64,000 nt of DNA from Lingula anatina. Its lineage: Eukaryota; Animalia; Brachiopoda. Positions within the stretch are counted from its first letter, which is position 1; each line of letters begins with the position of its first letter. The notes under the pieces were generated by a model. The model saw nothing but the letters and a program-made list of their open reading frames with translations, searched no databases and was not told the origin of the DNA. The stretch spans positions 17,604,587 through 17,668,586 of the forward strand of contig CM120648.1 in the NCBI GenBank assembly GCA_051362555.1, written 5' to 3'. The position numbers and the translations under genes are program-made. Below are positions 2,678 through 46,560 of the stretch, one piece after another.

Positions 2678-5600
2678 TCAAACATACCCATATACGTGTA
2701 GGGATGTATGGCTTGTAACAGACACATGATGTGGTGTATTACTACTGAGAGCATTGTCCTGGACAATCACATGCTTCCGTGGCTTAGTACTGAAACCATT
2801 GTCCTGGACAGACACATGCTGTGGTGGCTTACTACTGAAGCCATTGTCCTGGACAGACACATGCTGTGGTGGCTTAGCACTGGAACCATTGTCATGGACA
2901 GACATATGCTGTGGTGGCTTAGTACTGGAACCATTATCTTGGACAGAGACATGCTGTGGTGGCTTACTACTGAAGCCATTGTCCTGGACAGACACATGCT
3001 GTGGTGTCTTAGTACTGTAACCATTGTCCTGGACAGACACATGCTGTGGTGGCTTCGTACTGGAATCATTGTCCTGGACAGACATATGCTGTGGTGGCTT
3101 ACTACTGGAACTATTGTCCCGGACAGACGCATGCTGTCGTGGCTTAGTACTGGAACTATTGTCCTGGATTGAGAAATGCTGTGGTGGTATACTACTGAAA
3201 CCATTGTAGTGGGCAGACACTTGCTGTGGTGGTTTACTACTGGAACTATGGTCCTGGACAGACACATGCTGTTGTGGCTTAGTAATGAAACCATTGTCCT
3301 GGACAGACACATGCTGTGGTGGCTTAGTACTGGAACCATTGTTCTGGACAGTCACATGCTGTGGTGGCTTACTACTTAATCCATTGTCCTGGACAGACAC
3401 ATGATGTGAAAGTTGACTACTGAAACCATTGACCTGGACAGACACATGTTGTGGTGGTTTACTACTGGAACCATTGTCCTGGACAGACACATGCTGTGGT
3501 GGCTTAGTACTGAAACCATTGTCCTGGACAGACACATGCTGTGGTGGCTTACTACTGGAATCATTGTCCTGGACAGATACATGTTGTGGTGGTTTACTAC
3601 TGGAATCATTGTCCTGGACAGACACATGCTGTGGTGGCTTACTACTGGAATCATTGTCCTGGACAGACACATGCTGTGGTGGTTTACTACTGGAATCATT
3701 GTCCTGGACAGACACATGCTGTGGTGGCTTACTACTGGAATCATTGTCCTGGACAGACACATGCTGTGGTGGTTTACTACTGGAATCATTGTCCTGGACA
3801 GACACATGCTGTGGTGGCTTACTACTGGAACCATTGTCCTGGACAGACACATGTTGTGGTGGCTTACTACTGGAACCATTGTACTGGACAGACACATGCT
3901 GTGGTGGCTTACTACTGGAACTATTGTCCTGGACAGACACATGTTGTGGTGGCTTACTACTGGAACCATTGTACTGGACAGACACATGCTGTGATGGCTT
4001 ACTACTGGAACCATTGTACTGGACAGACACATGCTGTGGTGGCTTACTACTGGAACTATTGTCCTGGACAGACACATGTTGTGGTGGCTTACTACTGGAA
4101 CCATTGTACTGGACAGACACATGCTGTGATGGCTTACTACTGGAACCATTGTACTGGACAGACACATGCTGTGGTGGCTTAGTAATGGAACTATTGTCAT
4201 GGAGAGACACATGCTGTGGTGGCTTAGTACTGGAACCATTGTCCTGGACAGACACAAGTTGTGGTGGCTTAGAACTGGAACCATTCTCTTGGACAGACAC
4301 ATGTTGTGGTGGCTCAGAACTGGAACCATTGTCCTGGACAGACACATGTTGTGGTGGCTTACTACTGAAACCATTGTCCTGGACAGACAAATGTTGTGGT
4401 GGTTTAATACTGGAACAATTGTACTGGACAGACACTTGTTGTGGTGGCTTACTATTGGAACCATTGTCCTGGACAGACACATGTTGTGGTGGCTTTCTAC
4501 TGAAACCATTGTACTGGACACACAATTGTTGTGGTGGCTTAGTACTGGAACCATTGTCCTGGACAGACACATGTTGTGGTGGCTTACTACTGGAACCATT
4601 GTCCTGGACAGACACATGTTGTGGTGTCTTACTACTGAAACCATTGTCCTGGACAGACACTTGTTGTGGTGGCTTACTACTGAAACCATTGTCCTGGACA
4701 GACACATGTTGTGGTGGTTTACTTCTGGAATCATTGTCCTGGACAGACACATGTTGTGATGGTTTACTACTGGAACCATTGTCCTGGACAGACACATGTT
4801 GTGATGGTTTACTACTGGAATCATTGTCCTGGACAGACACATGCTGTGGTGGCTTACTACTGGAATCATTGTCCTGGACAGACACATGTTGTGGTGGCTT
4901 ACTACTTGAACCATTGTACTGGACAGACACATGTTGTGGTGGCTTAGTACTGGAACCATTGTCCTGGACAGACACATGCTGTGATGGTTTACTACTGGAA
5001 CCATTGTACTGGACAGACACATGTTGTGATGGTTTACTACTGGAATCATTGTCCTGGACAGACACATGCTGTGGTGGCTTACTACTGGAACCATTGTCCT
5101 GGACAGACACATGCTGTGGTGGCTTACTTCTTAATCCATTGTCCTGGACAGACACATGCTGTGGTGGCTTACTACTTAATCCATTGTCGTGGACAGACAT
5201 ATGTTGTGGTGGCTTAGTACTGGAACTATTGTCATGGAGAGACACATGTTGTGGTGGCTTAGTACTATAACCATTGTCCTGGACAGACACAAGTTGTGGT
5301 GGCTTAGAACTGGAACCATTGTCTTGGACAGACACATGCTGTGGTGGCTTACTACTGAAACCATTGTCCTGGACAGACAAATGTTGTGGAGGTTTAATAC
5401 TGGAACCATTGTACTGGACAGACACATGTTGTGGTGGCTTACTACTGGAACCATTGTACTGGACAGACACATGCTGTGGTGGCTTACTACTGGAACCATT
5501 GTACTGGACAGACACATGCTGTGGTGGCTTACTACTGGAACCATTGTACTGGACAGACACATGCTGTGGTGGCTTACTACTGGAACCATTGTACTGGACA

Positions 5601-8115
5601 GACACATGCTGTGGTGGCTTAGAACTGGAATCCTTGTCCTGGACAGACACATGCTGTGGTGGCTTAGTACTGGAACCATTGTCCTGGACAGACACATGCT
5701 GTGGTGGCTTACTACTTAATCCATTGTCGTGGACAGACATATGTTGTGGTGGCTTAGTACTGGAACTATTGTCATGGAGAGACACATGTTGTGGTGGCTT
5801 AGTACTATAACCATTGTCCTGGACAGACACAAGTTGTGGTGGCTTGGAAGTGGAACCATTGTCCTGGACAGACACTTGTTGTGGTGGCTTACTACTGGAA
5901 CCATTGTCCTGGACAGACACATGTTGTGGTGGCTTACTACAGGAAACATTGGCCTGGACAGACACTTGTTGTGGTGGCTTACTACTGAAACCTTTGTCCT
6001 GGACAGACAGTTGTTGTGGTGGCTTACAACTGGAATCATTGTCCTGGACAGACACATGCTGTGGTGGCTTAGTACTGGAACCATTGTCATGGACAGACAC
6101 ATGCTGTTGTGGCTTACTACTGAAACCATTGTCCTGGACAGACACTTGTTGTGGTGGCTTACTACTGAAACCATTGTCCTGGACAGACACTTGTTGTGGT
6201 GGATTACAACTGGAACCAATGTCCTGGACAGACACATGCTGTGGTGGTTTACTACTGGAACCATTGTACTGGACAGACACATGCTGTGGTGGCTTACTAC
6301 TGGAACCATTGTCCTGGACAGACACATGCTGTGGTGGCTTACTACTGGAACCATTGTCCTGGACAGACACATGCTGTGTTTGCTTAGTACTGGAAGTATT
6401 GTCCTGGACAGACACATGCTGTGGTGTTTTACTACTGGAACCATTGTACTGGACAGACACATGCTGTGATGGTTTGCTACTGGAACCATTGTCCTGGACA
6501 GACACATGTGTTGATGGTTTACTACTGGAACCATTGTCCTGGACAGACACATGTTGTGGTGGTTTACTCCTGGAACCATTGTACTGGACATACACATGTT
6601 GTGGTGGCTTAGTACTTGAACCATTGTACTGGACATACACATGTTGTGGTGGCTTAGTACTGGAACCATTGTCCTGGACAGACACATGCTGTGGTGGCTT
6701 ACTTCTTAATCCATTGTCCTGGACAGACATATGTTGTGGTGGCTTAGTACTGGAACTATTGTCATGGAGAGACACATGTTGTGGTGGCTTAGTACTATAA
6801 CCATTGTCCTGGACAGACACAAGTTGTGGTGGCTTAGAACTGGAACCATTGTCTTGGACAGACACATGCTGTGGTGGCTTACTACTGAAACCATTGTCCT
6901 GGACAGACAAATGTTGTGGAGGTTTAATACTGGAACCATTGTACTGGACAGACACATGTTGTGGTGGCTTACTACTGGAACCATTGTACTGGACAGACAC
7001 ATGTTGTGGTGGCTTACTACTGGAACCATTGTCCTGGACAGACACATGTTGTGGTGGTTTACTACTGGAACCATTGTACTGGACAGACACATGCTGTGGT
7101 GGCTTACTACTGGAACCATTGTCCTGGACAGACACTTGTTGTGGTGGCTTACTACTGAAACCTTTGTCCTGGACAGACAGTTGTTGTGGTGGCTTACAAC
7201 TGGAATCATTGTCCTGGACAGACACATGCTGTGGTGGCTTAGTACTGGAACCATTGTCATGGACAGACACATGCTGTTGTGGCTTACTACTGGAACCATT
7301 GTCCTGGACAGACACATGCTGTGTTTGCTTAGTACTGGAAGTATTGTCCTGGACAGACACATGCTGTGGTGTTTTACTACTGGAACCATTGTACTGGACA
7401 GACACATGCTGTGGTGGCTTACTACTGGAACTATTGTCCTGGACAGACACAGGTTGTGGTGGCTTAGTACTGGAACCATCGTTTTGAAGAGACATTTGCA
7501 GTAAAACCTGAATAGACACATCCTTCAGTGGTCTACTACTGAAACCAATGTCCTGGACAGACACTTGCTCTGGTGCCGTACTGCCAGAACCATCATCTAA
7601 GATAAACTCAAGCCGTGACAGTTTTCTACTAGAACCATCGTTTTGAACAGACATTTGCAGTGAAACTTGCATAGACACATGCATTGGTGGCTTACTACTG
7701 GAACCATTGTCCTGGACAGACACATGTAGTGGTGGCTTACTACTGGAACCATTGTACTGGACAGACACATGTAGTGGTGGCTTAGTACTGGAACCATTGT
7801 ACTGGACAGACACATGTAGTGGTGGCTTACTACTGGAACCATTGTCCTGGACAGACACATGCTGTGGTGGCTTATTACTGGAACCATTGTACTGGACAGA
7901 CACATGCTGTGGTGGCTTACTACTGGAACTATTGTCCTGGACAGACACATGCTTTGGTGGGTCTCTACTTGAAACATTGTCCTGGACAAACACATGCTGT
8001 GAAAGCTTACTATTAGAACCATCGTTTAGATGAGTCATTTGTAATGTCCTTGCAATGGAACCATTTTCCCGGTCGCCCTGGCTGTCACCAGTGGTACTTT
8101 CTTCTCGTTTTGAGC
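2678..8115 (-). CDS. Exon 9 (giant tandem-repeat exon) of the chimeric IAP-derived gene; encodes ~118 copies of a 15-aa Ser/Pro/Gln/Val-rich repeat
   Basis: This is the only frame open across 5.4 kb (ORF 2678..8176). A minus-strand acceptor ctgttttattgtttatcag|GCTCA at 8116/8115 is phase 1 and matches the exon 8 donor. The exon ends at stop 2678 or at a possible donor TATGG|gtatgt at 2688/2687. Confidence 0.8.
2715..8030. repeat. 45-bp coding minisatellite, ~118 units, with higher-order block duplications
   Basis: Plus-strand consensus ccattgtcctggacagacacatgctgtggtggcttactactggaa is in register every 45 nt. Multi-unit variant blocks recur (e.g. ~5210-5420 vs ~6730-6950; ~5980-6120 vs ~7140-7280). 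Confidence 0.97.
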
Positions 8116-8213
8116 CTGATAAACAATAAAACAGTGTTATTAGGATGGATTGAACACCTACCAATTCTGTCTGCATGTATGCATATTTGGATAAGATAAT
8201 ACAATAGCATTAA

Positions 8214-8680
8214 CCCCATAGAGCCCGTCACCGCATATGTGCGGTTCAATTATCGCTTACGCCAAAAGCCCAGAACCGCATATGTGCGTATGTAGGAAAG
8301 ATCGGCTTCTGTACTCTTTTGTATCGTGAGTCATGAAATGATATATAGTTTAACATCCGGGTATGTTTCTTTTGTCTCATTGCCACCATTTTTAAGGGTG
8401 ATAGAAATATATATGAGCGAGAAAACGGCGATTTTCAAGACTTAGTTGGAAAAAGTAAAGTCAAGATGGCGACTCCTCGCTACGGTAGGGACCTGCGAAG
8501 GGTTATTGTTATTGAAATGATTGAAAACCCGGACTTTGATGAGATTTTTCGTGTAACAGTGGCATAGACAGTGACGATGATATTCATTTATTTATGATAT
8601 AAAGGACGATAGAAATATATATATGAGCGAGAAATCGGCGATTTTCTAGACTTAGCTGGAGAAAGTAAAATCAAAATGGC
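8214..8680 (+). mobile_element. 5' end of a piggyBac-like element (truncated)
   Basis: TTAA|CCCC start, subterminal repeats ccgcatatgtgcg, caagatggcg, and an internal direct duplication (~8400-8470 and ~8608-8680). No right end found. Confidence 0.45.
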
Positions 8681-9180
8681 AAACAAACAAACAGACAAAC
8701 AGGGGTGAAAACATTACCTCCCAGGCGGAGGTAGTACTCCAAACAGCTGATATAATCCGAGTCAACCAATTTTTTCTTCTATACAGATATTCCCTTAGGA
8801 TAAACTGAGATAACTTCCTCTCCTACGGAGATATCCTGTTAGCATAACTTATAATAACCTATGAGAATAACCTAAGGAAACATGTTCCTTTATAGAGATA
8901 GCCCATTAAGATAAACTTAAGAGATAACTTAGGATAATATGCTTTCTTATAGAGATAACAGAGAAAACAAATCATAAAAACTACTTGCACAAAGAGTACA
9001 AAATAATACAGTAACGGAAACGGTTAATCTATCGCGGGAGAAGTACGGGTAGGATCTAAAGAAAGAACATAAGTTCGAAATAGCAACTACTGGTTACTGT
9101 TAAATATTAAACTGTTAAATGTTTTAAACTGCATAAGGCACCGTTTAATGAAAGACGGGTTATCCTCACAGGGGCTCCCT

Positions 9181-9182
9181 AA

Positions 9183-9216: not shown

Positions 9217-9217
<1 letters not shown>

Positions 9218-10280: not shown

Positions 10281-11577
10281 AAAGTTCAATACAATAGGCA
10301 TAGTTTTAAGTATGTATGGAGGGGAGGCTGTAAACGGAGTTTATATATGCATTTATATGCGTAATACTAAACAATTAAAGGGACAAAAAATAGGATTAAA
10401 AACGCATTTTTAGTGCATGGATTGCTTCTTATTTAACTTGTCTGAGAACAATTGCTATGGGTAAAGCATAAAATGGCAGGTAAATGGCCTTAATCAATAT
10501 CGAAAAAAGAATCATATTCACCGTCCACTTTCGAACCCCGGGCGTCAGCCATCTTGACACAGTTTGAAATAACGCGGCATCTCGACTCAGATATGAGATG
10601 TAAACAATGCAGACAGCATGTCTCACTCGACTGCGAAGGTGAGCGTGGGCGAGAAGAAGAGGAATTGTTCACAGAATCTTTGCAGGTAAGCGGGTTATAG
10701 TCACTATATGTGCTTTAAAATGGGAAGGTGGCAGGAAATAAAAATATCTAGCAGTGGAAGTTTAAAAGCGTAAATAACTGCTACATTTCCTCGGATAACG
10801 CACTCGCAGTCCCCAAACCACTCGCACTGCTTACTACGTAGTTACATGAAGCATGGTAGTGCACTTTGACCCTGAGGTATATAGTTCTGTAAACCAGGAG
10901 GAATACCGTTTTCTGCTCAATGTGGTCATCTACCAGTACTTGCAGACGAACCTCACACCATATTCCCGCAGGGGAATCCCATGAGATATACAATGTAACT
11001 CGAGTACTACATACTAGTTGAGATAGAGGGTGTTCTTTGTACAACACGTAACTCATTTGTTAATGTATTAATATTGTCAGATAAGATAAGATAAGAGTTT
11101 ATTTAGCCAATTATAACAAGGCAGCAAAGCTGTCAAATGTACAGACAAAAAACAGAAAATAGAGATGCAAAAAAGGTCATTTTGTCAATTTTGATGCAAT
11201 AATAAATAATGCTTATAATAGCACTGTCAGTCAACACTGAATTTTAATCATGCACAACAGGTAAAATGGTCAATAACATGAGCGGACCTAGAGATATTTT
11301 CTGACAGTATTCCAAAGTATCTATTTTGATCCATCCTCCATTTTGATGGTCTTCTAACAGAAAAAAAATAGACATCAATATAAACTTAATAACTGACTGT
11401 CTTCCGAAAGACCCAGAAGATGGTCTCAATTCACCCCTTCAATAAGATTACAGTTTCAGGACCATGAGAGTTCAAATTCACATGATGAAAATCTCATTCA
11501 AAATGATGACAGTGCATAAAATGATATTACATAAGTAACATAATGTTTAAAGACATAAAAAACAATACAACTGCTTA

Positions 11578-14500
11578 CAGTAGTAATAAAAATTAAGTTT
11601 CCGTTGTACGACGTTTTAAAAACGTCAGAAAGGTTTTAATCCCTATACTATGAATAGAAGGGGGCGGACAAACAATGGAGAGCCGTCTAATCCCTTCAAA
11701 ATTCGAACGCCAAAACACAATAGTTTAGACGTAATAACACACAATACCTTAGGCGAGTGAACCCCATGACGCCTGTTTCTGTGGTCCAGCGCGAGCGCGA
11801 CAATCCGCTGTGACTAGGTGTAATTAACAGCAGGATACATCAGCCAGAAAGTGCCCATTGTTTGTTGCGGCGATAGGATTATACTCCCGTGGCCACCTAT
11901 CCTTTTGTTCACTAGCTTGGCACACGCAGCTGATCATGTTTTAAGTGTTGCAAGAAAACTGCTAGTTTAATTTAGTATCAGTTTTTTAATTCAACATGAA
12001 GTGTTCTGTTGTCAAAAATTGAATTTGATAGACATGCATCAACATCGTACATCAGCATGATCAACAAATCACCCCGTCTCAAAAAGTTTAAAGATGCTGC
12101 GTACACAAATTTCCATCATCGCTACCTGTGTAAAAATACATTACTGTTTAGAGATAACAAAGAAAGAAACATCATTAAAACAATTTATTCACATTACAAG
12201 CTGGCGTGTTGCCTCAATTACTACATTAAGTTACATTTTATATAAAATAATAGAGCGAATCCGTAAAAGGATAATAATAGAAAGTCTTAATAAATAAATA
12301 AATAAACAGGCCCACAGCCAGGCGGAGTTCGGGAGGATCGAAAAAAAAACCCTTTTGCTTAAAAAAGGCCCACTCTGGGTAAAGTTTGACATAAGTACAT
12401 GGGGATTTTTCGGTAAAAGGTCCACTTTTTCAGAAAAAGACACTCCCCCTTTAAAATTGCTGGCTACGGGCTTGATAAATTAATAAATAAAAATGTTATT
12501 TAAAGAATAAAGTAAATAATTAGGTTACATTAAGAATCAAATAAAAAATAGATAAAAATTAGATGATTTAAATCATTAAATTAAATTAATAAATAATAAA
12601 TAAATTATGATTTAATAATTGAATTAATAAATCGCTGTGAAGAAATAATCATTGTCGCAGCTAACGCGGTGAGTGTCAACCCATTATCAGGGCCATAACT
12701 TATAACTCCTTGATTCAACGTACTTTCATAAACATGTAGTGTGACCACACTTTCAGCCACCCTCCTTGTTGCACGTTGCAAGCGATTTGTCTCATAACTA
12801 TGACAAGGCGTTCTTTTTTCTTGTTGTTGTTTAAAAACGGACAACTTTGTCAAGGCTAATTGCTTAGCTCCCTGCGCGTCATATGTACTTAGCTCTTTGC
12901 GCGACCTATGTAAACGCTAAGATATGAATGTTAGACCGGGTAGTTGATTGTTTTGCCCGGGCGCCGCACTTATGCTTTCCTACTAGAGCGATCTAGAACA
13001 AGTCGCTAGTTTGTTCTGTTTGTAACTGTAGCAAAATATGTTCGACATGCCGTTTCTGCACGACAGCCGGAGACACAGTAATTGTATAAGGCATGGTTTA
13101 AGCTTGTTCGAGAGATAATAACAGTCGCGTTTAACAAAAGATAGTAAGACCCCCTCCTCTTTAACTGATGTCACTGTTAATATTGACCGCACTTTCATAT
13201 ATTATGTAATACACTGTCAGACTTTCCCCTGTTGCACGTTGGCGTTGGATTGTACTTGTGCCTCTGTCAATGCACCTCATTTAGTTTAAATATTTTTACC
13301 GCATAAACCTTTGAGGTTAAGAGTTATTAGATTAGTAGTAGAAATAGGATGCTTAGACAAAAAGCTTCTAGTCAACTCGCTAAGACCTAGGGTGTGATGC
13401 TGCTATCATCCGAGGAAACACCTACACTGAATCCTCTACCTGAAGTCCCCCTAGCTGAAACAAAAAATGCCCCTTGAACCGGCCCATTTTTAAAGCGTCG
13501 AATCATTTTTGATATCATTGAGCGTTTAAGCGTAGGTTTATTCATCATGATCTATTTTGTAAACAATACTTGCCTAGATTTTACTTGGATTGATCATAGT
13601 CACTGTTTGGCTACTCGCCTATAATGCGTGCTGAATGACAGACAACTTTATCTGTGTTACTGTTTTTATGACCACGCTAAGTTAAAATAGAACGGTATCG
13701 GCGATTTAATCCATCCAACATATTTATATTTCTTCTTTTAAATCCAGGTTAACATCAAGTCAAAGCAAGCCTTGCAGATTGATTTTCACAATGCCCTGTG
13801 CTTTAGAGTCCCATGTTATACAATAAAATGAGTATGACCTGAGAGAAATATAAATATGAGGCCGTGTATGAAGATGTTTCAAATAATAAAAATCAAGAAT
13901 TTATACATGTTAGGTACATGCACATCACTTGATAAGTCATTTCACAAAAATGGCATCTAATTTTTCAGATAAACCCCCACTTTTATCGATCTCAACGCCT
14001 TGTCTGATGTTTACATGTAGGCGTATACTCCAATATTAAATGCGAACAATATCAATAGCGACTCGAGATCGTTGCCTGTTTTTCACACTTTAACACAAAC
14101 TCATGAAGGGTTAATAAAAGGATTCGCGTTGCGACATTCATCTCTTTCTTTCGAACAAGCAAATTAAGGGCTGACCCGAAGTGAGCTTTCATAACTAATT
14201 TCTCTTTGACTGTACAGGGGTATATTGTAATTACTCCACTTGGTCGCCTCCATTGTCTTGTAACATTGACAAAGAATATGTTTTCACACGCTAGTTTACA
14301 TAACTCCTTTGCCTTGTGTCTTTATCAAGGTTATAATCAGTTTGAATAGGTTGTCTTGCCTCACTTAAAAAGGGAGTTGTTCTTCACACTGGTTGTTGCC
14401 TACATTTGTGTAACTTATGCTAACCTACTTTGTACAAATATGGTTTTAATAAATCGCCAAAACTATGACACTAGTGAACATTGTGTATCAAACATTTTGA

Positions 14501-15157
14501 TACGATTAAATAGATGTGCAAGAAGGATTACGGAATGAGTTACTATTTACCCCCCCCCCCCCCCCCACGCGCCCTTCAAAAAATGCTCTTTTAATTTCGA
14601 AATGAATTTGTTTTTAACGCAAAGAAGTCCAATACCCCCTTCACGACTCAGTCATTGTACAGCATGTTATATTACTCTTTACACTTTTTATTTGACACTG
14701 TCTCTGTTTCTCTCCCCTTTTACTTTCTCTTGTTAGAAGGAGGGCAAATAATTAAGCATTCAAAATATGCATCACCAATCTTCAGAAAAGAATGAGTGAA
14801 TGAACCATTGGACTGGCCCACAACGTCCGACACAGCAGAATAAATTAAATAACAGCTTTCACAGATTTAACTGCATTTAGCTGTATAGCGCCACTATATA
14901 CCGGTACATAATCCGCTGCATGCGCGAAGCTGTTGAACAAAAGGATAGTTCTCTATGGAAGACCTTTTGTTTACATAAGTACTCTAAGAGGGCGTGCCTA
15001 ACCAGGCGACAAGAGGATTAGGCTAGTCACTATGTTCCGTCAAATTCGTTTAGCGACCCTATCATTATCACACTCCCTCTATTGTATTTTCTGACGTTAT
15101 AATTGTATCTAATCTTCTTACGTTAGATGGAATAAATGCACACATACATAATCTTAT
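11578..15157 (+). mobile_element. Diverged copy C of an unclassified ~4.2-kb interspersed repeat
   Basis: Collinear similarity to 24885-29261 (e.g. atagaagggggcggacaaacaatggag; gtcaaagcaagccttgcaga; cgcgaagctgttgaacaaaaggatagttc). The segment ~12900-13290 is inverted relative to copy A. Confidence 0.8.
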
Positions 15158-15261
15158 GACTGTATGTGGAAATACAGAAATGTCAGAGCCTCAGGCGGAT
15201 GAGAGTTAAAAGTCACAAATGCAAGTGTTTGAGAAAAATTTATAAGGGAAAACATAACAAA

Positions 15262-34240: not shown

Positions 34241-34327
34241 CTGTCCCATTGTCTGTGTTCTTCATTCTTCGTTTTCTAATATTTTCTACATCACAAATAT
34301 CTTTCCTGACCTGTGCGTTATATTCAT
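34241..34327 (-). CDS. Exon 4 of the chimeric gene (DEYNAQVRKDICDVENIRKRRMKNTDNGT)
   Basis: ttttatttgcag|AT...ACAG|gtgaga; 87 nt, phase 1-1, open; similar to exon 8. Confidence 0.7.
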
Positions 34328-34876
34328 CTGCAAATAAAATGGTGACCGATGAAATATTATTTCTATGGTACCTAGTTTTCAGACAATCACATCTCATCTT
34401 CAAAAGCCCAAATCTTCAAAAGCCCATAGCCGTCTACCGTATTTTACATTTTTTTAAAGATACTCCAAAGAATCAGATCTGGATAAATGGCATTCTCACT
34501 GTCAATGTCATTTAAATGGGTTTATTCTTGAATAATTTTATTCCTTCACCTGATCATTATGACAAGGGAATATTTAATAAAGTCTTTATTTATTTTACTT
34601 TATTTACTCAACGTAGATTTGAGGTTAAATGTATCTTTCCCATGCCCCACATGCAACGAAAGCTTATAACCGGGAACAATATGAAACAGAGAAAAATATA
34701 TATTGTATGAAATAGAAGTAATTTTATCCAATCCTACCGTATCGATAGTCCATAAAGTTTGGCTGTAAAATTAACTTAGATATTAACATTCTATGCTAAT
34801 TCTATATTCTATATTTCTCTTTCTATATTTGCAAGTGTTATATGTTTGGAGTGTTATAAACCTCAAACACTCCAAA

Positions 34877-34940
34877 GTAATAATAATAATAAGAAGAAGA
34901 AGAAAATGAAGAAGAAGAAGAAGAAGAAGGAGGAGGAAGA
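34877..34940. repeat. (AAT)n-(AAG)n compound microsatellite
   Basis: Direct reading; it produces the poly-N/K/E stretch of ORF 34846..35310. Confidence 0.9.
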
Positions 34941-34999
34941 GGCCAAGAGCAGAAGGAGGAAGAGGCCTGGTTTAATTAGAACTGTCCTTCAAAATGACA

Positions 35000-35372
35000 A
35001 CCATAGGCCTGGACACTACCTGACATCAACAGAAGACCCACTCCTCCAACTAGTGAAACATCATGAGAAGAGAAAAAAGCTCTACTCGATCAAAAAGGAA
35101 GCCTCAAAATTCAAGCAGAAGCTGAAAATCCCAGAAATACCACCAACCGAGAATGAAGCGACAACAAAGTATGCCCGCAGAGTCAAACAGAAAGCAAAAC
35201 AACATGACCAGCTACAAATGCGGAAGACCCGGGAAGAAAAGCCAATACATTGGAAGTACCCAAAAAGGACCAAAGAGCCAGATGTAGACCAAGAAAAGAC
35301 CAACAAATAGCTCAAGACAAACGGACTAAAAGCTGAGACAGAAGGCCTGCTAATTGCTGCACAAGACCAGAG
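35000..35372 (+). mobile_element. R4/Dong-like non-LTR retrotransposon fragment
   Basis: KPIHWKYP...DVDQEKTNK*LKTNGLKAETEGLLIAAQDQS matches the LK.ETEG.I.AAQDQ motif of R4-clade elements. Confidence 0.7.
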
Positions 35373-36951
35373 TCCCTGTCTCGAAATAACGGGTCCCGGA
35401 ATCTATTTTCTGAAATATAGAGTCCCCCTAGACATTCTATTTTAGTACGGAAAGTCCTAGGACCCTACGTTTTAATACTGACAGTCCGCATTGAGGAGTA
35501 AAAATTAAAAATAGTATCCTTATAACATGCAATTTGAATATGATTTTGAACATGATGAAGAAAGATATGGAGTGAAAAACTATAAAGATTAAAGGTTAAA
35601 TAAGCATGATTACCCTCCGTAAAAAATTAAAGCGTACTATAAAATTGTACTGTTGGTATTTCATAAACTTTGATAGTGTACCTTTCGTGTACCTCCGATT
35701 TATTACTCTTATTTTTCACTTATAATTAACTAAAAAGTAAAATATTTAACCTATTGTTAACTCATTGTGTGTCATTCCGCAGAAAGATGTTTTATACACA
35801 CTGTTCTTTACATTTCATTTCTTTTTCATTTGAGGTTTTTCAAAGATGTTCCATTGCCTTGTGATCGTTTGGTCTATGACCCCTATACGAGTGACTTATT
35901 TGACTACCACTCATAAATATGTGTAAGCTAGTCATACACAATGCAGCGATGCTTTGCTGTGCAAAACGTTTCTTAAGTGTGTGACAGCTAGCGTTATACA
36001 GTGCATCAGTGTTAAGCTGTGCAAAATATGTTTTCTTGAAAAGGACAGAATTAATTTATTATTAAAGTGTCATTGAAAATATACTCATTTAATTTTGTTT
36101 TACAGTTTAAATAACTTATATTCAAATAAAAAAAATGACCTTTATATCAATGGAATCAACCCAAAAAGAATGTATTTCATGATTCTCAAGGTATAAATGG
36201 CTAGCTGCTCGCGATGCCCTACACTGTCACCATGGATTTTCAAGCAATACGGCTTTATTTACAAAATGCCAGGTGTACCATGAACATTTGACTCCCCTAA
36301 AATATGACTCCCCTTAATAGAAATCTGACTCCCCAGTCAAAATTTCATAATGAAAATCAGACTCCCCCGAGATAAATTTTGACCCGCACCCCCACAAAAC
36401 TCAATATTTGTTATTTTATTTGAGTATAAGACTTTTATCTTGAAGTATGCATAACGGAGGATATATTGACACTTTGTTAGTGCAGGTGTAAATTTTTCAT
36501 GAAAACAAAATTAAAAATATGTATTTTACCACCCAATGACTCCCTATGAAAAAGCTATATTCATTTGATATTTGGTGATCATTTCAACATTTTTCCTTTT
36601 AGTATACTTTATGAATAATATATTGGAAATATTTGAAAGTTCAATGTTAAAATATTTGGTGGAAAAAATCAGGAAAATATTCATTTTCATTTGTAACCAA
36701 GGGGAATCAAAATCCCACTGGCACAAGATTGCAGAGTTATTATCTTTTTTCATTAAATTATCCCCACTTTTCATTCAGTTTTTGAAAAAAAAATAATGGG
36801 AAAACAACAGCAAGTGTTTTGTTGGATTTGCTATAAATATAAAGAATTCAATAAAATATTTTCCTGATTTTTTAAAATTGCATTCATAAGCTAAATAGAG
36901 CAAATCAAAGTATGTGAAATGCCAACAATACTTATTTATAGTACGTTTTAA

Positions 36952-39900
36952 GTGTGTGTCCACGAGAAAACCAAACCAAATGTAGAAAATGCGGCAAGGT
37001 GGGGGTGAACGGATTTACATCATATTTGGTGTGTTTGAACCTTTATATGAACAATATCTGAGGCTGCAATATTTCCTGAAAAAAATCCCTACTTACAGAG
37101 ATATGGCCAGTGACAATTCGGGGGGTTTATCAACCAAAAATTCTTCTGAAAAACAGGGTTATATTGATTGGCCTTAAAGTTTATACAGGTGTCACCAAAT
37201 GATTTAGTTTGGTGATATATTATAACCTAAAGATAGGGGATTAAAATGATATACACTTTTTCCACTCTCTTTGTTTCCATGGTAACAAACCAAGCGTTTT
37301 TCTCAGGCCTACAAACCACATGCTTTGAACACCCCCCGTCTATTTTTGACAATATCTTCATCTTCACAGGTCTTTGGGGTAAAGCGTGTTCAGGACTAAC
37401 AGATAACTCATTAATCTATTTATACATGAAATCAAAACTTACTGCTGTTCTACAACTTGTCCGTTGTAACAGATAGAACATGACCTAATTTCTTCATTTT
37501 TCGTAAATATATCCGAACACGTATATCGGTGCACTGAACTTCAGCCATCTCTTTCAAGTCAACGAATGGTTTAAAACACTGTTAGTTGCACTTTTTATTT
37601 TCATTTTACCTATTCTAATTTTTTTCTGGTTAAAACAAGCATCTAACACATTTTAAAACCATGTGAAACTAATGTACTAACGTCAGAACAACACAACGTC
37701 ATTATCCAACATGGCGGAAATCGCAGACTGTTTGTTTACAAATCTTCCTCAACGAAGTCGTATATCATGTGGTTTATACTCTGTCTACAGATATAAAAAA
37801 ACATGTAGTGTATTGAAAAATTGCAACAGAGATATTAACAGTCATCTTCGTCGCGTTTACGTGAAGCAAAACAGCGTGAGTTACGAAAGCACACTGATTC
37901 TTGTCAGGTGTGAATTCTTTTGTATCCGATGACAGCAATTGGACTTTTTCAAGTATCTTTGGGAGAATAAATGGGTTACACCATGTGACCAGCACTGGGA
38001 TATGGGCTTGGTTTGTGCTGGAAACCATCCACACGGGAAAACGAGCCTATAACGAAATATGTCATGGGATTAACTTGCAGATGTCAGTGTAGACAAAAAG
38101 CCATTTGAATATACTGATGCCACTTGGTTCAGGTAAGAAACGGGTTTGTTTCTATTTTAATACAGGCTAAAATCCAGAAAAAAGTTCACTCAGAAAAATG
38201 ATCTAGGTGTAATTTTTTAATGGTAAACGCTCCATTTTTTTAAAAAGAAAAATGCCCCCTTTCAAATAATGAAATTGCAGCCTAAGGACCTGTGATAATT
38301 TTATCTTTTAAGCTATATTTGTGTGGGTATTTATGTAGGTTTAATGGTACTTGGGTAAAATAAATTTAAGGGTAACAATTGGAATTAGATTGGAGCTAGG
38401 GCTGGTCTTGGCAAAATTGCTAGGATCATCATAATTAATATTCGAAACCATGCCTTACTTATAAAACATGGACAAATGGGATAATAATTTATTTTTCATC
38501 AATGTATCAATTAACTTTCAGATAAGTGTTTTCATGTGTCTATAGTAAGCTATATTTATATTTCAGGCATATTTGAGAAGTGTTATTTGACACACAGTGA
38601 TCTTATGGTCAGCAAAAGAGTCCAAAGTCTTGCAGAAACTGAAACTAGCGTGGAAATGATGGCTGTTGTAAAAAGGCATGTATGTAAATGAAAGCCACAA
38701 TATAACAAATGCTGAGGAGATGCATGAGGCCCTAGTTTCTGCAGTTGGAGCCATTTTCTACATCCAGCTAGACAGACATCTTCCAAACCTGCGTGGACTG
38801 GAGTGTCCAATTACAACAATTTAGCTTTCTTGATTCCTACAACATGAGAAAAGGTGTCTTCCTTCCTTGAGCAGTTTTAACATGAGTGATACTGATGTTA
38901 AAGTTAATTTGGGTTTTTCTGAGGCAAATATGCCAACTGGGACTATACCAAGCAAGATCACAAACAGGGAAATTTTTTCTTGTCCAGAGAAGTTAACTCT
39001 GAAATCTTTTGCTACTAAGACTGAAGAGTATTTGTAAGGTCCTTTTTTAGACCACAGTTATGAAATGTGCCAAAAAAAAAAAACAGCTTTTGATCAAATT
39101 AAAGTCTAGTGGGCCAACAATCTGACTAAAGAAAAACTTAAAGCACATCAGCTGTGAGAGAACTCCACCCTCTTGAATATCTCACTGAGTTACACAATGG
39201 ATGAGCTTTAAAGTCATCTAAACCTTTGAAACTATATTCAAATAAAGTAAAGGAGTTTTTACTGAAGGAGTTTAGAAGGGCACAAGAAACAGGCCAGCAG
39301 AACCTAGCATTTGTGAGCATGAAGATGAGATTGAAATGTCAGTAAGGAGGGTTACAGACTATTCAGGAAGAAAAAATCGGCAGTTATTTTTGAATGTATT
39401 AAAAACTTTGATGTTATGAGCTGTAATGTTTGATACAAAACTGCAAAGGTGTTTCATAACACCAGGATATATTTTGCGGTTGTGTTAGTTTTGCTTTTTG
39501 AATAGAAAATTATCTTGTTTTGCTACATTATGATATAGTTTGTAATGATCACAACTAATGTTGCACTGCTTTGCATGTATTGCTATATTATAATTCTGTG
39601 ATTTTTTTTTTCTTTGTAATTATTCATCTGAGACAACAATAAACTAAATTGAATAATTTTTTAGTTACTGTATGCTCATAAATAGTCACCAAAAAGTGGT
39701 GTGGATGATTAAAAAAAAACTCTTGATAATTGAAAAGATTTGTTCTGACTTTGCTATCATAAATACTTTGGCATATCCTGATCTCTATATGATAAATATT
39801 GCACCAAAAAGAAATCGCTACTGAACTAAGATTTTAATTTGTATTCACCAAATTGATGATATTAAAAAATATATATATATATTAAAATTATCTTGTAAAC

Positions 39901-40725
39901 TCTCAAGTTAATTGCCAGTTCCATCCAAAGTAACAGAATCTATGATTTATTTCCTCTAAATTTTTTGTCCATATAAATTAAGAAGTCCATATATGGCAAT
40001 TTACAAATATGAAGCCCAGTGACCTTGACCTACTGACCTGATATTCATTAGTACACATCCACTTTCCATGTTCACCAGCCCTATTAATTTAGTAACATCA
40101 TTGTAGAGCAAAATGGTTTAATAAATTAATCAAACCTATCGTCTACATAGACTTGAATGAATCCACCATGATTTTTTGCCTTAAAAATGGCCAACTTTGG
40201 AGGTATTTTTCAGTACCTGTTTTAATACAGCAGTAACTTTTGAAACTTGATTTGGAATGACCCATATCTGCCTAAAATATTCATGCAGTTTTATAGCTGT
40301 AAACCTTGTGAAGATGGAGATATATGCAATTAAAGATGGTAGTATCAAAATTGGACTTTGGGGGGAGGGGTGTTATAAATGGGTGTGGCTCGCCCAAGCA
40401 GGGTCTTATCTGAATTCTACATATATCTGTGGCAAGCCAAATGATTGTTTTCAATGATTGTAAGGTCTAATATTTTTTAGTTTTCTCCATTTTTGTTTAA
40501 TTTACACAAAATATATCATTATTTTTCCAAGGTAAAAATGGAGTCTCAAAGAGGCTACATAAGCTATGACTTATAATAGGCTATAATTCTCTGAAGAAAG
40601 GATATTTTTGGGATTCCTTCCTAACTCATGAATAACTTCCTAATATGCCTCCATACAACAAATTTGGTTGAAATCCGCTGACCCCCACCTTGCCACCCTG
40701 GGCTGGTTCTCTCGTGGACAAGCTC
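36952..40725 (+). mobile_element. Degenerate Sola3-like DNA transposon
   Basis: TTAA on both flanks (36948-51 and 40726-29). TIRs tgtccacgaga.aacca...ggcaaggtgggggt...cggattt; the right end is CTC|TTAA. Internal remnants MAEIADC...CNRDINSHL...LILVR and HNITNAEEMHEALVS, WTGVSNYNN. Confidence 0.7.
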
Positions 40726-40732
40726 TTAAATT

Positions 40733-41177
40733 TTATGATGAATGGGACAATATCCCACAAAACAGAATTGCTACATGTGTTGAAGGCTTGGCGCGCCGTC
40801 TACAGGAGATAATTGCGGTACGCGGTAAACGCACACGCTATTAGGCACGTGACCTTTAACGACATCCTAATGCCAACTGTGTGTAAATTTGGTGACATTT
40901 GATGGCGTCTTTTTAATTTTAAAATAGACATTTCTTTATATCTGTGGAAATCACAGTGAAACATTGGATTTTAGGGGGTTCCTGTTATAAATTTGACTAA
41001 ATGGTATAAAATGTGCATATTTTCGCCACTATTTTGTATTTTCTGAACCATTAATCATGTTAGACAAAGTATCTGGAATAAAAGGCACCGTTTTTAACAA
41101 TTTATACCTGTGAGGTGATCATTTGTAAATATAAGTACATGGAAATGGGGGTGGGACAACCTTTTTGACCAATGTTG
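40733..41177 (+). mobile_element. 3' end of a Tc1/mariner element
   Basis: EWDNIPQNRIATCVEGLARRLQEIIAVRGKRTRY*, followed by a TIR ending ...gaccaatgttg|ta; same family as 42391-44034. Confidence 0.85.
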
Positions 41178-41266
41178 TATTGTAGATAATAAAATTAATC
41201 ATTATGCACTTTTGAATCCCAATTGATAAAAAAGTCCAATTTTGTGCACTGCCTTTGCAAGTACAT

Positions 41267-41502
41267 CTAGAAAAGCACTCCGAGAGCGCAGATCTCCGCC
41301 AAGGCAGCGATTTTTGATTATTATTCATTATTGATTGATTGTTCGGATCACCACCAAAAACTAATCATTTCTAACTTAACACATTTCTGACCTACCCTGA
41401 AAATTTCATCAAAATCGGACCAAAACTGTTTGAGTTATGATGATGACAAACAGACATACAGAAAGACAGGGGTGAAAACATAACCTCCTTGGCGGAGGTA
41501 AT
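41267..41502 (+). mobile_element. Short HINE/DINE-1-like element (second copy)
   Basis: Same ends as 15262-15450 (ctccgccaagg / ccttggcggagg). Confidence 0.7.
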
Positions 41503-41756
41503 GAAAGGAAAACTTTGTAAATTATTTTGTAACTTACAAGAATGAGCCTGAGTACAAACATATATTAGATTTTTTTGTGAATTTTTCATTTTTATTTTAC
41601 TCATACAGCACTTCAAATGTGTGGATATGAACTCTCAAAAGCTTCAAGTCTAATGCTAGCTACATATCCCTAATGTCCAAGTTTCCTGCATTGCATGATA
41701 AGAATTTGGTGCTGGATTTGCAGCTCAGCATAAGGCATTACTGCATTAAAATTTAC

Positions 41757-41788
<32 letters not shown>

Positions 41789-42010
41789 TCGGTAATTTTT
41801 CACATCATGGTATATTGGAACTGAAGCATCATTCAAGTTGCCGATCTTTTTACATGCGTGCTTCCTTAACATTTTGTAGGGCATGATTAAAATAAGTTAA
41901 CTTTCTGTTGAGTATTATGATTTATTGCATCGAAATTGGCGATGGAAGCTATTCTGTGCATCATTATTTGCAACTACAATTTATACGAAGTATCGTCAAC
42001 TCATGCCTAC

Positions 42011-42160
42011 CCTCTGGTCCTGTTGTGTTTCCTGGCACAGAAAGACTTTGTGTTTCTGGGACAGCAAGAGTTATGCCTGGCACTTCGTTGGTGATGTTCT
42101 CACTTCCCTGTCTGATGTTGGGCAGGCAGTTGGAAAGTTTTTCCTGCATTTGTTGGTCAC
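42011..42160 (-). CDS. Exon 3 of the chimeric gene; paralog of IAP exon 58005-57831 with a degenerate BIR C-terminal part
   Basis: tttattttag|GTGACCAA matches IAP tttattttag|GTGAACAA. Shared GAAGTGCCA.GC, CTCTTG...CAGAA.CACA and GGAAACA..ACAGG. 150 nt, phase 1-1, open (GDQQMQEKLSNCLPNIRQGSENITNEVPG...TGPE). Confidence 0.78.
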
Positions 42161-42352
42161 CTAAAATAAATGTTGTATGAAAACAGTTACCGTTATTTCA
42201 TTCACGTAACAATCCAAAGGTTTTGTTGGCTTTAAAGAAGTGAGAAGGCCATACTGCCTTGAAAATTTTGCTATAAATCAATTACTTTAGAAAACAAAAT
42301 CATGCAGCCCGTTATGTTGTGTCTATTTTCATGTTTGATGGGCTTATTTGAC

Positions 42353-42390
<38 letters not shown>

Positions 42391-42392
<2 letters not shown>

Positions 42393-44034
42393 ACATTGGT
42401 CAAAAGGTTGTCCCACCTCCATTTGCATGTACTTTTACTTACACATGATCACCTCACAGTTGTCAATTGTTAAAAAGAGTGTTTTTTTTTATTCCAGATA
42501 CCATGTCAAACGCGATTAATAGTTCAAAAAATACAAAATTGTAGTGAAAATATACACGTTTTATACCATTCAGTCAAATTTATAACATGTATCCTCTTAA
42601 ATCCAATGTTCCACTGTGATTTTTACAGATGTAAAGAAATGCCTATTAAATTAAAAAGAGGTCATCAAATGTCACCAAATTTACACACAATTAGTATGAG
42701 GGTGTGTTCGTTAAAAGTCACGTACCTTACAGCGTGTGCGTTGACCGCGTACTGCAATTTTCTCCTGTAAACGGCGCGACAAGCCTTCAACACGGTAGCA
42801 ATTCTGTTTTGTGGTATATTGTCCCATTCTTCTTAAAGAGCCTGGCGCAATTTGTCCAGATTATTTGGAAATGGATTCTCCTCTGTATTGCACACTTCAA
42901 TTCATGTCACTGTTGGTTAGTAAGGTTAATATCAGGGCTCAAAGATGGTCGTTCCATCCTTAAAGCATTGTGTTTTTGCAACAAATCACTTGCCAGACGA
43001 GAGGTGTGCTGTCATAATGAGGCCTGGAGTTAACCCCAAAGTCAGTTCTTGGAGATGGAGCAAGATATCAGCTGAGAATGCTACACTCAGTGATCCCACA
43101 GGTAGGCTACCTCAATCACTGGAAGGCAGATGGTTTTACTGCAGAATCAAGTTATTTATTGAATCCCATCGATGGTCAAATGAGGGTTCGTAGACATGTT
43201 GAAAAATGCCATTTGGAGATGTGCGTGCAGGATAATATCGCCTGATGTGTTAGATCAGTCCACATTTGGAGAACATTCCAAGCCCATGGTATTAGTACAT
43301 TGTTCCTTTGGAACAAAACGTAACTGGGGCATTTTACTGCAACATTCTCAACAAATAGCTCACTGCATTTGCAAGAGGTGACTTCAGGGATGCTACCAGC
43401 ATCATTGTGACAACGCAGTTGCTCACAGCTCTCGTCTGGCAAGCCATTTGTTGCAGAAAGACGGGGCTCTGAGGATGGGACAGCAGTTTTTGAGCCCTGA
43501 TTCTAATCCTACTGAGCACCTGTGGCATTAATTGGAATGAGCATTACACAGGAAAACCAATCTCCAGATAATCTGGTCCAATTCCGCTACGCTGTTTAAG
43601 AAGAATGGGATAATATCCCACAAAACAGAATTGCTACATGTGTTGAAGGCTTGGCGCGCCGTCTACAGGAGATAATTGCAGAACGCGGAAAACGCACACG
43701 CTATAAGGCACGTGAGCACACCCTAATGCTAATTGTGTGTAAATTTGGTGACATTTGATGGCGTCTTTTTAATGTTATAGACATTTCTTAACATCTGTGG
43801 AAAACACAGTGAAACATTGGATTTGGGGGAGGGGGGGGCTGTTATAAATTTGACTAAATGGTATAAAATGAGCATATTTTCGACACTTGTTTTTATTTTC
43901 TGAACCATTAATCATGTTAAACATCGTATCTGGAATAAAAAGCACCGTTTATAACAATTTACATATGTGAGGTGATCATTTGTGAATAAAAGTACGTTGA
44001 AATGGGGTTGGGACAACCTTTTTGACCAATGTTG
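42391..44034. mobile_element. Fold-back Tc1 (DD34E-type) element built from two inverted 3' ends
   Basis: Termini aacattggtcaaaaggttgtccca / tgggacaacctttttgaccaatgttg|TA. The right half encodes decayed VFTAESS, DNAVAHSSR, SPDSNPTEHLW and EEWDNIPQ. The left half is the reverse complement of the same C-terminal region. Confidence 0.8.
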
Positions 44035-44117
44035 TATATGCTTGCCCTTTTGTTTCGTCTATATGCTATATTTGAATAGAATAGGCTAAGCACACGTTAT
44101 GATACAGACAGACTTAC

Positions 44118-44196
44118 CTGGTTCCCAATCTAGTATCCAGTCTCCCTGGGGGGAATGGGCAGATGGTACACCCCTAGCATCCCCAGCATGATTCAT
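44118..44196 (-). CDS. Coding part of exon 2 of the chimeric gene (MNHAGDARGVPSAHSPQGDWILDWEP); whole exon 44377-44118
   Basis: Acceptor ttcag|CT at 44378/44377 and donor CCAG|gtaagt. Shares HAG, PQG and the terminal W-x-x-G|gt junction with IAP exon 58636-58269. The start codon choice is inferred. Confidence 0.65.
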
Positions 44197-45745
44197 TGTG
44201 CTGCTTCCCGGTGTCGTGGTTCCCGGGATGGCACCCTCAAGTGAGCTATTGACCAGTGACGTGCACTAAAATTATGAAATGAACAAGCATTGGTATACCA
44301 ATCCCCAGTGTTCCAACTTGCTAACACTAGTGTCTGAGAGAAGAAGGCAGGGACACTTATGACCAAGAAGGACATAGCTGAACGTATAATTTAGAAAAAA
44401 TTGAAAAAAAGAAAGAAAGAATTAAGAATCAACAGTACTGCTTATCTTTGTTTACAGGAGAAGAATCAATTTAATTCCAACAAGGGGTTGGGACAAATTT
44501 TGAGATGCCCATGCACGTCCCTGATAACAGGTCTTTCAATCACCAAAGTTTCAGCTTCACAAGGCTAATGGTCTACGAGGAGTTAACATAAAATACAGAG
44601 TGAAAAGATTCTACCACCCCAGGGAACGTCCAACCCCCTGTTGCACTAAAATCCGAAATGTCCAAGCAGTTTCCTAACATGCATTTTATTTCATTTTACA
44701 AATAATTTCAAGTGCCTTAGTATAGTAGTCTAGGGGGGAGAAAGCCGAAATGACAATTAGAAAAGAGTTCAGAAAAATTCCAAAATGCCTTTGCACATCC
44801 CTGTTAAAAAGTTTATAAATCACCAAATGTTCAACTTCCTTACTCTAATGGCCTGTGAGGAGACAGGTGAAATTAGAACGGAAATCAATTTAAAGAAGAG
44901 CAACCCAAAGAACAGAAAGTGTCAAAATTATTTGAAGCTTTGCAGGAAAAATCATTTTTTGTTTCTCTTGATCTTTAATAAGCCCCTAGTGGCCCCAGGT
45001 TAGGAGCTGCTCTTTGAAAATAACGCACAGGTACATTTTTTCCTGGGATATATATCGCCAGCGAGAGTGCGTATGATACACTCAAGACATAAGCTACCTG
45101 ATAGTTTAAGATAGGGCTTTTGTAACTAGTACTTGCATTGTTTATATTAGTTCTGTGAAAACAAACCAGAAGTGGTTTCAGAACAATGGTGCATATACAA
45201 TTGATACAAAAAATGTGCACATTCAGGTGACGTTAACCTACAATCGAATGGGATTTTCGATCATATTCACTTGGGTCGCTGGCTTACAAAATTGCTGCCT
45301 CTTCTTCCACTCTTTATACACTAGACACCCATGTGGCATCAAAGGGGAATGCGTAGTCTCGAGACTTCAGTTCACGCAAAAGCAATAAAGCACGTGCATT
45401 ATACTTCTACAGCTGTATACGCCCCTGCTAGTACGAATGTGGAAATTTTCCTAGGCAGTCAGCCAGCATTAGTTGGAATAAGCAAACACACCATTATTGA
45501 TTGTTTTGACGATGAAAAAGTCCCTCGTTGAACAGATGTCGCGGAGGCGTCAAACAAACATTGAGTTGGTCACTGTTTCTTGTGCATGCAGTCGAACTTA
45601 AGCGTCAAATCTTATCAAAGCGTCACTGTTACCGGTTTATTAACTTATGTTCTAGGTTGTTTCCGCTATCAGAACTACCCCACTTCAGTAACGTGTGAAA
45701 AAAAAATTCCCCATCTTTTAGATAAACATGCCATTGCTGGTAGAT

Positions 45746-45906
45746 CCGGTGTTCGGGGAAATCCCGGGTTTTACAGCTCTAGATCTGACATAATAGTCTG
45801 ACAATATGGGAATTTCCAACCCTGGACAGCCGGTGTTTGGGGAATTAACGGGTTTTGCAGCTCTAGATCTGACATAATAGTCTGACAGTATGGGAATTTC
45901 CAACCC
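45746..45906. repeat. 84-bp tandem duplication carrying NF-kB consensus sites (intron 1)
   Basis: Two copies of ccggtgtt..gggga...agctctagatctgacataatagtctgaca.tatgggaatttccaaccct. GGGAAATCCC at 45756; GGGAATTTCC at 45808 and 45892. Confidence 0.85.
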
Positions 45907-46033
45907 TACACCAAAGAGTGCCGTTTTCTACACAGATAAAGTGGTAAATGTAACACTATTTTAACATAGCTCCTAATAAGGTCAGTGCTGTGTATTAGTG
46001 TGCTATGGGACCCTAACCAGTCAATAAACACAG

Positions 46034-46440
46034 CCCGCACGAAAATGCAGTAGTATCGAAGTAGCAAAAAAGCATTAACGCAGTAGTGGTGTGGAGCATA
46101 TTTGCAATAGAAATGCAGCATAGCCTACTGCAATTCTACTCCAAAAAGTACATAGGTTTGTACAGAGAGGAGCATTAATGCAGTAGATAAGCCGCATGAT
46201 AGAAGCGTGTTTCAAATATGCAAATTAGCTCCCAAATCGAAGCAGGTTTGAAGCATGTTTGCAGTATGATTGCAGTAGTCTACTGCGGTTTGCAGTATGA
46301 TTGCAGTAGTCTACTGCGGTTTGCAGTATGATTGCAGTAGTCGACTGTGGTTTGCAGTATGATTGCAGTAGTCGACTGTGGTTTGCAGTATGATTGCAGT
46401 AGTCTACTGCGCTGGAGTATCTACTGCGTTTTCTTGCGGG
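46034..46440. mobile_element. Second copy of the CCCGCA MITE with an internal ~5x 30-bp expansion
   Basis: Same TIRs as 1048-1312; tandem gtttgcagtatgattgcagtagtc.actg.g at ~46257-46410. Confidence 0.8.
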
Positions 46441-46517
46441 CTAGGGGACAGGGGTACTGAACCAACCTACAACGTACAACGTATATAGACGACAGCGTGG
46501 AATCATGGTTGACTTAC

Positions 46518-46560
46518 CTTGTCTATTCCTTCTCAGCAAATGGCGGACCCGGAAGGTTTA
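46518..46560 (-). other. Putative non-coding first exon of the chimeric gene
   Basis: Consensus donor AAG|gtaagt at 46518/46517, immediately downstream of a cluster of regulatory motifs. The 5' boundary is unknown. Confidence 0.5.

Follow-up and report, generated by a model that had tools for sequence, protein, structure and literature searches.

The hallmark of the IAP/BIRC family is at least one BIR domain with three-Cys, one-His zinc ligands. Here we describe a predicted gene of Lingula anatina that descends in part from this family and has lost that domain. It lies in a 64,000-nt stretch of assembly GCA_051362555.1 (the window; contig CM120648.1, positions 17,604,587 to 17,668,586, forward strand), in tandem behind an IAP gene, and consists largely of one exon encoding a 15-amino-acid (aa) repeat. 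The sections of PMC13159474 considered here report 14 XIAP/DIAP2-like proteins in L. anatina and describe loss of BIR or RING following IAP duplication as common in protostomes. In the portion of PMC8917759 drawn on here, the novel BIR types of oyster are point variants that keep the domain. Such IAP surveys, in the parts cited, count only genes that keep a BIR, so that domain-stripped copies escape them and BIR-less derivatives like the repeat gene lie outside them. A comparable history is that of antifreeze glycoprotein (AFGP), which arose from trypsinogen: as in the repeat gene, the 5' part of the parent was retained, the catalytic bulk is gone and a short internal sequence was amplified. 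In contrast to AFGP, the repeat gene derives from a cytosolic apoptosis regulator, encodes no signal peptide, is built on a 45-nt unit and still contains the unamplified proto-exon. With the RHIM and HET-s motifs, as treated in the cited part of PMC4262963, it shares short Val/Gln-rich tandem strands, a predicted solenoid-like fold and an immune-pathway setting, whereas it has more than 110 copies rather than one to three and its protein carries no death or kinase domain.

We think it moderately probable that the locus is a single translated, lineage-specific gene: a partial IAP duplicate from which the BIR core was deleted, with a duplicated exon module and a 15-aa array. The predicted gene has a non-coding exon 1 followed by coding exons 2 to 9, all on the minus strand:
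46518-46560, minus strand: putative non-coding exon 1, read from the sequence, with a GTAAGT donor at its end
44118-44265, minus strand: exon 2, with ATG at 44196, IAP homology to 44259 and a candidate acceptor before 44265
42011-42160, minus strand: exon 3, C-terminal half of an IAP BIR plus linker
34241-34327, minus strand: exon 4, paralog of exon 8, with a weak hint of the next IAP exon
32271-32385, minus strand: exon 5, paralog of exon 9, one repeat proto-unit, phase 1 to phase 2
31975-32066, minus strand: exon 6, no homology found
31723-31845, minus strand: exon 7, no homology found
31265-31363, minus strand: exon 8, paralog of exon 4, intron flanks included
2688-8115, minus strand: exon 9, a 15-aa repeat rich in Ser, Gln, Val and Pro in at least 114 units, with a phase-2 GTATGT donor at its end
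2678-2687, minus strand: final codons and TGA of the earlier model, part of the coding sequence only if splicing bypasses the donor after 2688

The eight coding exons had been proposed in an initial annotation made from the sequence. AG and GT ends were found at all eight, and recomputing the phases of the seven joins gave 1, 1, 1, 2, 1, 1, 1. Likewise, the proposed stop-free frame was recovered, with 6,183 nt, 2,060 aa and a single terminal stop. The predicted product of 221 kDa has no hydrophobic stretch and hence no signal peptide or membrane segment, and its 83 N-x-S/T sequons would for this reason go unused. Unlike the L. anatina IAPs, it contains no BIR, UBA or RING domain, and 88% of it is encoded by the repeat exon. 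The GC content of the window is 37%, compared with 36.5% for L. anatina in the cited part of bioRxiv 10.1101/2024.05.28.596352.

On sequence evidence, exons 2 and 3 are descended from an IAP gene. Both had been annotated as paralogs of exons of the neighboring IAP. For exon 3 (42160-42011), paralogy with the neighbor's exon at 58005-57831 was confirmed (DNA score 65; 0/500 dinucleotide shuffles; nhmmer E 2e-9), and the likeness runs from acceptor to donor. Exon 2 gave no significant DNA match to the neighbor's exon at 58636-58269 (339/500 and 327/500 shuffles), and that half of the claim was dropped. As references we used P0001 and P0002, two intact L. anatina XIAP/BIRC7-like IAP proteins. When read from 44265, exon 2 aligned with the inter-BIR linker of P0002 (residues 117-149; 1/1000 shuffles) and more weakly with P0001 (38/1000). 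Exons 2 and 3 jointly scored 90 on P0002 and 80 on P0001 (0/1000 shuffles each), exons 2 to 4 were colinear with P0002 over residues 117-321, scoring 129 where the best of 500 shuffles reached 78, and BLASTP matched P0002 with E 7e-6 among 55 proteins. The features shared with the two IAPs, in colinear order, are the inter-BIR linker, the WEPG exon junction, whose intron is in phase 1 as in the neighboring IAP, and the C-terminal half of the BIR with its linker.

The same alignments show what has been lost. About 71 residues of the BIR core are missing, in frame, from the P0002 alignment of exons 2 to 4; exon 2 fuses the inter-BIR linker, with the frame kept, to the BIR exon's WEPG end, and exon 3 carries two in-frame deletions of 3 and 2 codons. 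Compared with P0002, a deletion has removed the CxxC and the His is missing, while the last Cys is retained; because the CxxC and the His are gone, we infer that folding of a BIR is ruled out. No exon matched Pfam BIR when the exons were scanned one by one, and tblastn with P0001 and P0002 found UBA and RING in the window only in the neighboring IAP. The annotated loss of BIR, UBA and RING thus holds: the gene belongs to IAP/BIRC by descent and falls outside it by BIR, UBA and RING content.

The exons that followed had been described as novel. They are better described as an internally duplicated module, in which exon 8 corresponds to exon 4 and exon 9 to exon 5. Exons 4 and 8, flanks included, aligned with a score of 100.5 (maximum in 1000 shuffles, 50.5) and are separated by indels of 9 and 3 nt that keep the frame. 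Exons 5 and 9 have similar acceptors (6/1000 shuffles), matching donors (0/1000; tail alone, 1/1000) and agreement in phase at either end; the donor-like site after 2688, like the exon 5 donor, is in phase 2. For the 3' end of exon 5, the end of exon 9 was the best of 1,584 window tiles (score 55; best outside exon 9, 34), and a profile of the repeat placed the exon 5 proto-unit first among sites outside the array (E 0.016; next, 2.2). Because the pair 8-9 mirrors the pair 4-5 with matching phases, exon 9 would belong to the same gene despite an intron of 23 kb.

Whether exon 9 is also the terminal exon, as annotated, is in doubt. The donor after 2688 is homologous to the exon 5 donor, so that the stop of the earlier model lies in a probable intron, and exon 9 probably ends at this donor rather than at the stop. 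Since no sequence like exon 6 or 7 was found in 1-2690, the gene may either continue to the left of the window or now end with the donor read through. A tract of 57 A residues at 2370-2426 is preceded by neither AATAAA nor ATTAAA; retroposition, which this tract suggested, was rejected as the introns are present.

The repeat array provides evidence for translation. The 45-nt array extends over 2718-8022 in about 118 copies; 114 units were parsed, 77 of them distinct, with a mean identity of 92.6% to the consensus. Spacing is exactly 15 aa in 111 of 113 cases and 38 aa in the other two. On a spanning tree of the units, 176 changes were inferred (137 replacement, 39 silent and 0 nonsense), whereas 4.3-7.7 nonsense changes were expected depending on the spectrum, or 5.9 with a strand-symmetric spectrum. 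Under the latter, the other five frames showed 56 stop-making changes against 51.9 expected, and those frames of exon 9 contain 11, 220, 30, 12 and 62 stops. Similarly, there were no frameshifts in the array, compared with about 14 expected from seven repeat pairs in the window, which carry 21 frameshifting indels per 257 substitutions. With neither stop-making changes nor frameshifts, the frame behaves as if translated, in line with the initial annotation. Indels in exon 3 relative to P0002 and in exon 4 relative to exon 8 all keep the frame as well, unlike those of the lesion-bearing neighbor. Selection seems, from these patterns of change, to keep length and frame and not the exact residues. 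The array also carries block duplications of several units, and close to the exon 9 head (7480-7700, minus strand) are two irregular units of 38 aa, apparently an older type of repeat that was there before the 15-aa array.

Several results weigh against a translated gene as modeled above. Turnover of minisatellites can purge indels, so the expectation of about 14 frameshifts may be too high. The ratio of replacement to silent substitution rates (dN/dS) in the array is 0.9-1.2, and the differences between exons 4 and 8 fall on the three codon positions 9, 9 and 10 times; neither reveals amino-acid constraint. Protein searches gave no relative of the exon 9 head among proteins of 996-3170 aa and none for exon 7 among four candidates; phmmer with residues 1-400 of exon 9 returned 53 matches (13-48% identity), none of which had the unit as its dominant repeat or shared the N-terminus.

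RNA results belong with these points. We used eight of nine raw-read runs carrying the species label, assigned to the species by that label only, as neither stretch contains an expressed control gene; they were of unknown tissue and sampled shallowly (6-26% of each run read), in two sets of four on different stretches. None of the predicted junctions was among the joints listed for them, and as a check on the annotated junctions these runs neither confirm nor refute the model. Over 30800-46900 (four runs, 6-25% read), depth in all four ranged from 0 to 0.26 for the bins covering exons 3 and 5-7 and was near 0 for exon 8, no predicted junction was among the 15 of 30 joints listed, and putative exon 1 received no support. 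Coverage there fell on dispersed repeats, and depth in the exon 2 and 4 bins accompanied adjacent dispersed repeats. Over 7470-9150, the four other runs lacked joints altogether, and none of their reads fell on the unique exon 9 head. Three of these (X3, X5 and X6) gave no exon 9 reads in this stretch; the fourth, X8, gave about 110 reads on repeat units at 7641-7982 and none on unique parts, where about 7.6 would be expected under even coverage from this copy. Reads simulated from the array reproduced the depth shape of X8 but carried fewer consensus letters, the X8 reads being more uniform than the array (at one site, 49/55 compared with 79/182 simulated). In favor of a gene, poly(A)-type RNA with the repeat unit is present in one of the four runs, X8. 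The repeat unit is thus transcribed in one sample, and its source may be this array (its far part, given 3' bias), a different allele or a different locus.

These data bear most directly on the explanation that the locus is a silent or dying copy, once a gene or a member of a small family, whose recent array is still open and whose apparent RNA comes from a paralog or another allele. It accommodates the lack of exon and junction reads in all eight runs, the avoidance of the unique head by reads more consensus-like than those simulated from this copy, and a dN/dS near 1. It would also fit a donor at 2688 that has no exon 6-like partner, an A57 tract with no canonical poly(A) signal before it, and an adjoining IAP that is dead. 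However, 77 distinct units accumulated 176 changes with no stop or frameshift while the other frames gained stops as expected, and the splice sites are all intact. Only 6-26% of each run, from unknown tissues, was read, and sequence lying more than 5 kb from the 3' end is poorly sampled by poly(A) libraries. On balance we judge a silent copy unlikely.

A true chimera, to take up the term of the initial annotation, would join IAP exons 1-3 to the 3' part of an unrelated gene, giving the exon 4-7 module that was later duplicated and expanded. Exons 5, 6 and 7, which look mature and have good splice sites, resemble neither IAP proteins nor the neighbor's DNA to a significant degree; a UBA origin of exons 6-7 (178-1877/2000 shuffles) and a BIR3 origin of exon 5 (no significant likeness) were both rejected. 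No donor gene was found in the window or in databases, however, and exon 8 (5/2000 shuffles) and the joint exon 4/8 profile (24/3000) match the very next IAP exon weakly, as would be expected of a fast-diverged IAP. With exon 4 alone at 101/2000 and about 20 tests run, this is a weak hint that exons 4 and 8 derive from that exon; they did not match the neighbor's own third exon (576/2000 and 1111/2000). We consider an origin from two genes rather improbable. In the portion of PMC3449122 cited, a chimeric duplicate has two genic donors, and by its classes the locus fits best as a partial duplication with internal amplification. As in AFGP-type partial duplicates, part of one parent gene is retained and the repeat has grown from a short internal sequence. 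A separate transcript for exon 9, one whose upstream exons lie in the 23-kb gap while exons 2-8 end elsewhere, is very unlikely: the gap is repeat-filled, the 8-9 junction was unseen and the X8 reads left the head uncovered, but the paralogy with exon 5 at acceptor, body and donor, that of exon 8 with exon 4, and the matching phases oppose it, and no further exon 4-, 6- or 7-like sequence occurs in the gap.

For the single translated gene derived from an IAP, the order of events would have been duplication, deletion of the BIR core, duplication of the module and expansion of the exon 5-type unit through unequal exchange. All exons would be spliced into one mRNA. The 5' region contains candidate control elements:
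46568-46578, unstranded: perfect NF-kB-type site just upstream of putative exon 1
45756-45901, unstranded: three further perfect kB-type sites, all in intron 1 and including a pair of copies in an 84-bp tandem duplication
46690-46850, minus strand: element of about 160 bp with a near-kB core, also present at 51414-51566, 60963-61107 and 62194-62306 (inverted)

Sites were scanned with the kB consensus. Perfect matches in the 64 kb numbered 11 (7 distinct sites) compared with 2.9 expected, and four of the seven distinct sites lie within 830 bp at the 5' end of the gene (45756-46578). With the tandem pair counted once, P for this cluster is about 1e-4 for a fixed place and 0.009 anywhere. The region upstream of the neighboring IAP has one-mismatch kB-type sites only. 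Human cIAP2 is induced via proximal NF-kB sites (in the cited part of PMC2825243).

An upstream module shared with the IAP, which had been annotated, was borne out for the 160-bp element but not for the proximal region or for a closest-copy relation. Each of the four window copies of the element lies within about 5 kb upstream of one or other gene. The core of the copy at 46.7-46.85 kb is 93% like that at 51.4-51.57 kb and 80% like the IAP copy, and the proximal sequence 46690-46480 had no counterpart upstream of the IAP (434/500 and 414/500 shuffles). Putative exon 1 likewise had no counterpart in the IAP locus. The element is ambiguous between a shared regulatory module and a small dispersed repeat. 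Two inverted copies 1.3 kb apart upstream of the IAP (60955-62306) are arranged like the ends of a miniature inverted-repeat transposable element, and a 130-bp direct duplication occurs at 60143-60273 and 60586-60704.

If these sites act as in cIAP2, NF-kB would switch the gene on under immune or stress challenge. The product would be a cytosolic repeat protein of roughly 220 kDa, a rod-like or self-stacking scaffold and not a caspase inhibitor or ubiquitin ligase. Such an inducible-scaffold function is rather improbable. Slightly less probable still is the extended proposal that the product is a giant polymer with more than 110 units, inducible and beta-solenoid or amyloid-like, controlled by NF-kB and serving brachiopod innate immunity, with the unamplified ancestral exon kept as a record.

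The predicted fold is a low-confidence beta-solenoid. AlphaFold, given eight units and a 25-row self-alignment, placed one 7-residue strand in each unit (mean local confidence, pLDDT, 61; global confidence, pTM, 0.44). Two points count against this prediction. An antisense-frame control also gave periodic strands, although at a lower pLDDT of 44, and the best structural matches, beta-solenoids of the SufB/D type (Z 7.2, root-mean-square deviation 2.8, 111 aligned), fall in a range that is common for unmatched models. CsgA matched with Z 6.6 and a deviation of 9.1, and Foldseek gave no match at E 0.001. An extensin or secreted repeat glycoprotein was rejected (Extensin_1 60.6 bits against a cut-off of 105; no hydrophobic stretch), as was the RHIM amyloid motif, on a comparison by eye of the unit core VQDNG/VQYNG with IQIG/VQVG.

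The Atlas search returned nothing at 0.9 or above, and metagenome contigs contained no match to the repeat pattern. No literature report of the repeat peptide or of a BIR-less IAP-derived repeat protein was found, in a search with thin coverage of subscription papers and of the supplements of PMC13159474. What sets the locus apart is that the path is legible in one gene, from in-frame BIR deletion through exon-module duplication to a more than 100-fold amplification of the unit; the single-unit exon is kept beside the expanded one, and the dead sister IAP serves as an internal control. If expressed and inducible, the gene would be one of the rare cases in which the rise of a giant repeat protein out of a signaling gene can be traced, by a mechanism comparable to that of AFGP from trypsinogen; if silent, it would be a lineage-specific curiosity.

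The sister IAP lies upstream on the same strand:
55180-58636, minus strand: neighboring BIR-BIR-UBA-RING IAP, a pseudogene, on the same strand as the repeat gene

To judge from its reading frame, this copy is a pseudogene. It has three in-frame stops (at about 58275, 57925 and 56709) and at least three frameshifts, in its first, second and last exons, for a total of at least six lesions. Its BIR is 66-68% identical to two L. anatina IAPs, the only two candidates retrieved, and for the UBA exon the identity to P0001 is about 69%. It is less diverged than the repeat gene, yet it carries these lesions. The repeat gene had been annotated as a tandem IAP duplicate, paralogous to the neighbor. IAP descent stands; because the neighbor is a pseudogene and exon 2 is closer to the intact L. 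anatina IAP, the neighbor counts as a sister copy rather than a demonstrated parent. A 28-nt A/T homopolymer (55348-55375) lies inside its RING exon, near where P0002 is Lys-rich. Directly behind that exon, at 52791-55008, 720-bp inverted repeats (93%) flank the remnant of a THAP domain (54011-54220; Pfam E 9e-5, narrowly missing the cut-off), likely marking a P-like DNA transposon.

Other repeats are spread over the window. A repeat of about 4.2 kb is present in three copies (47157-51387, 24404-30730 and 11574-15166), whose scanned open reading frames had no Pfam match; its middle copy has 1.47-kb inverted arms that are 98.5% identical. A 139-aa frame at 52395-52811 (minus strand), with only a weak, unrelated Pfam match, resembles, by eye, the C-terminal zinc-knuckle end of an open reading frame from a non-long-terminal-repeat retrotransposon. 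A/T homopolymers occur at 2370-2426 (57 nt), 31635-31659 (25 nt) and 41757-41784 (28 nt). Around exon 3 there are three copies of an element of about 450 bp (40732-41180, 42392-42837 and 43595-44037), two of which lie inverted at either end of a 1.65-kb unit (42386-44039). Finally, an intronic repeat at 37200-40500 was covered by reads in all four runs of the 30800-46900 set and showed a recurrent GT-AG joint on the plus strand (38127-38562); it is a mobile element that is transcribed and spliced, with reads stemming for the most part from other copies.

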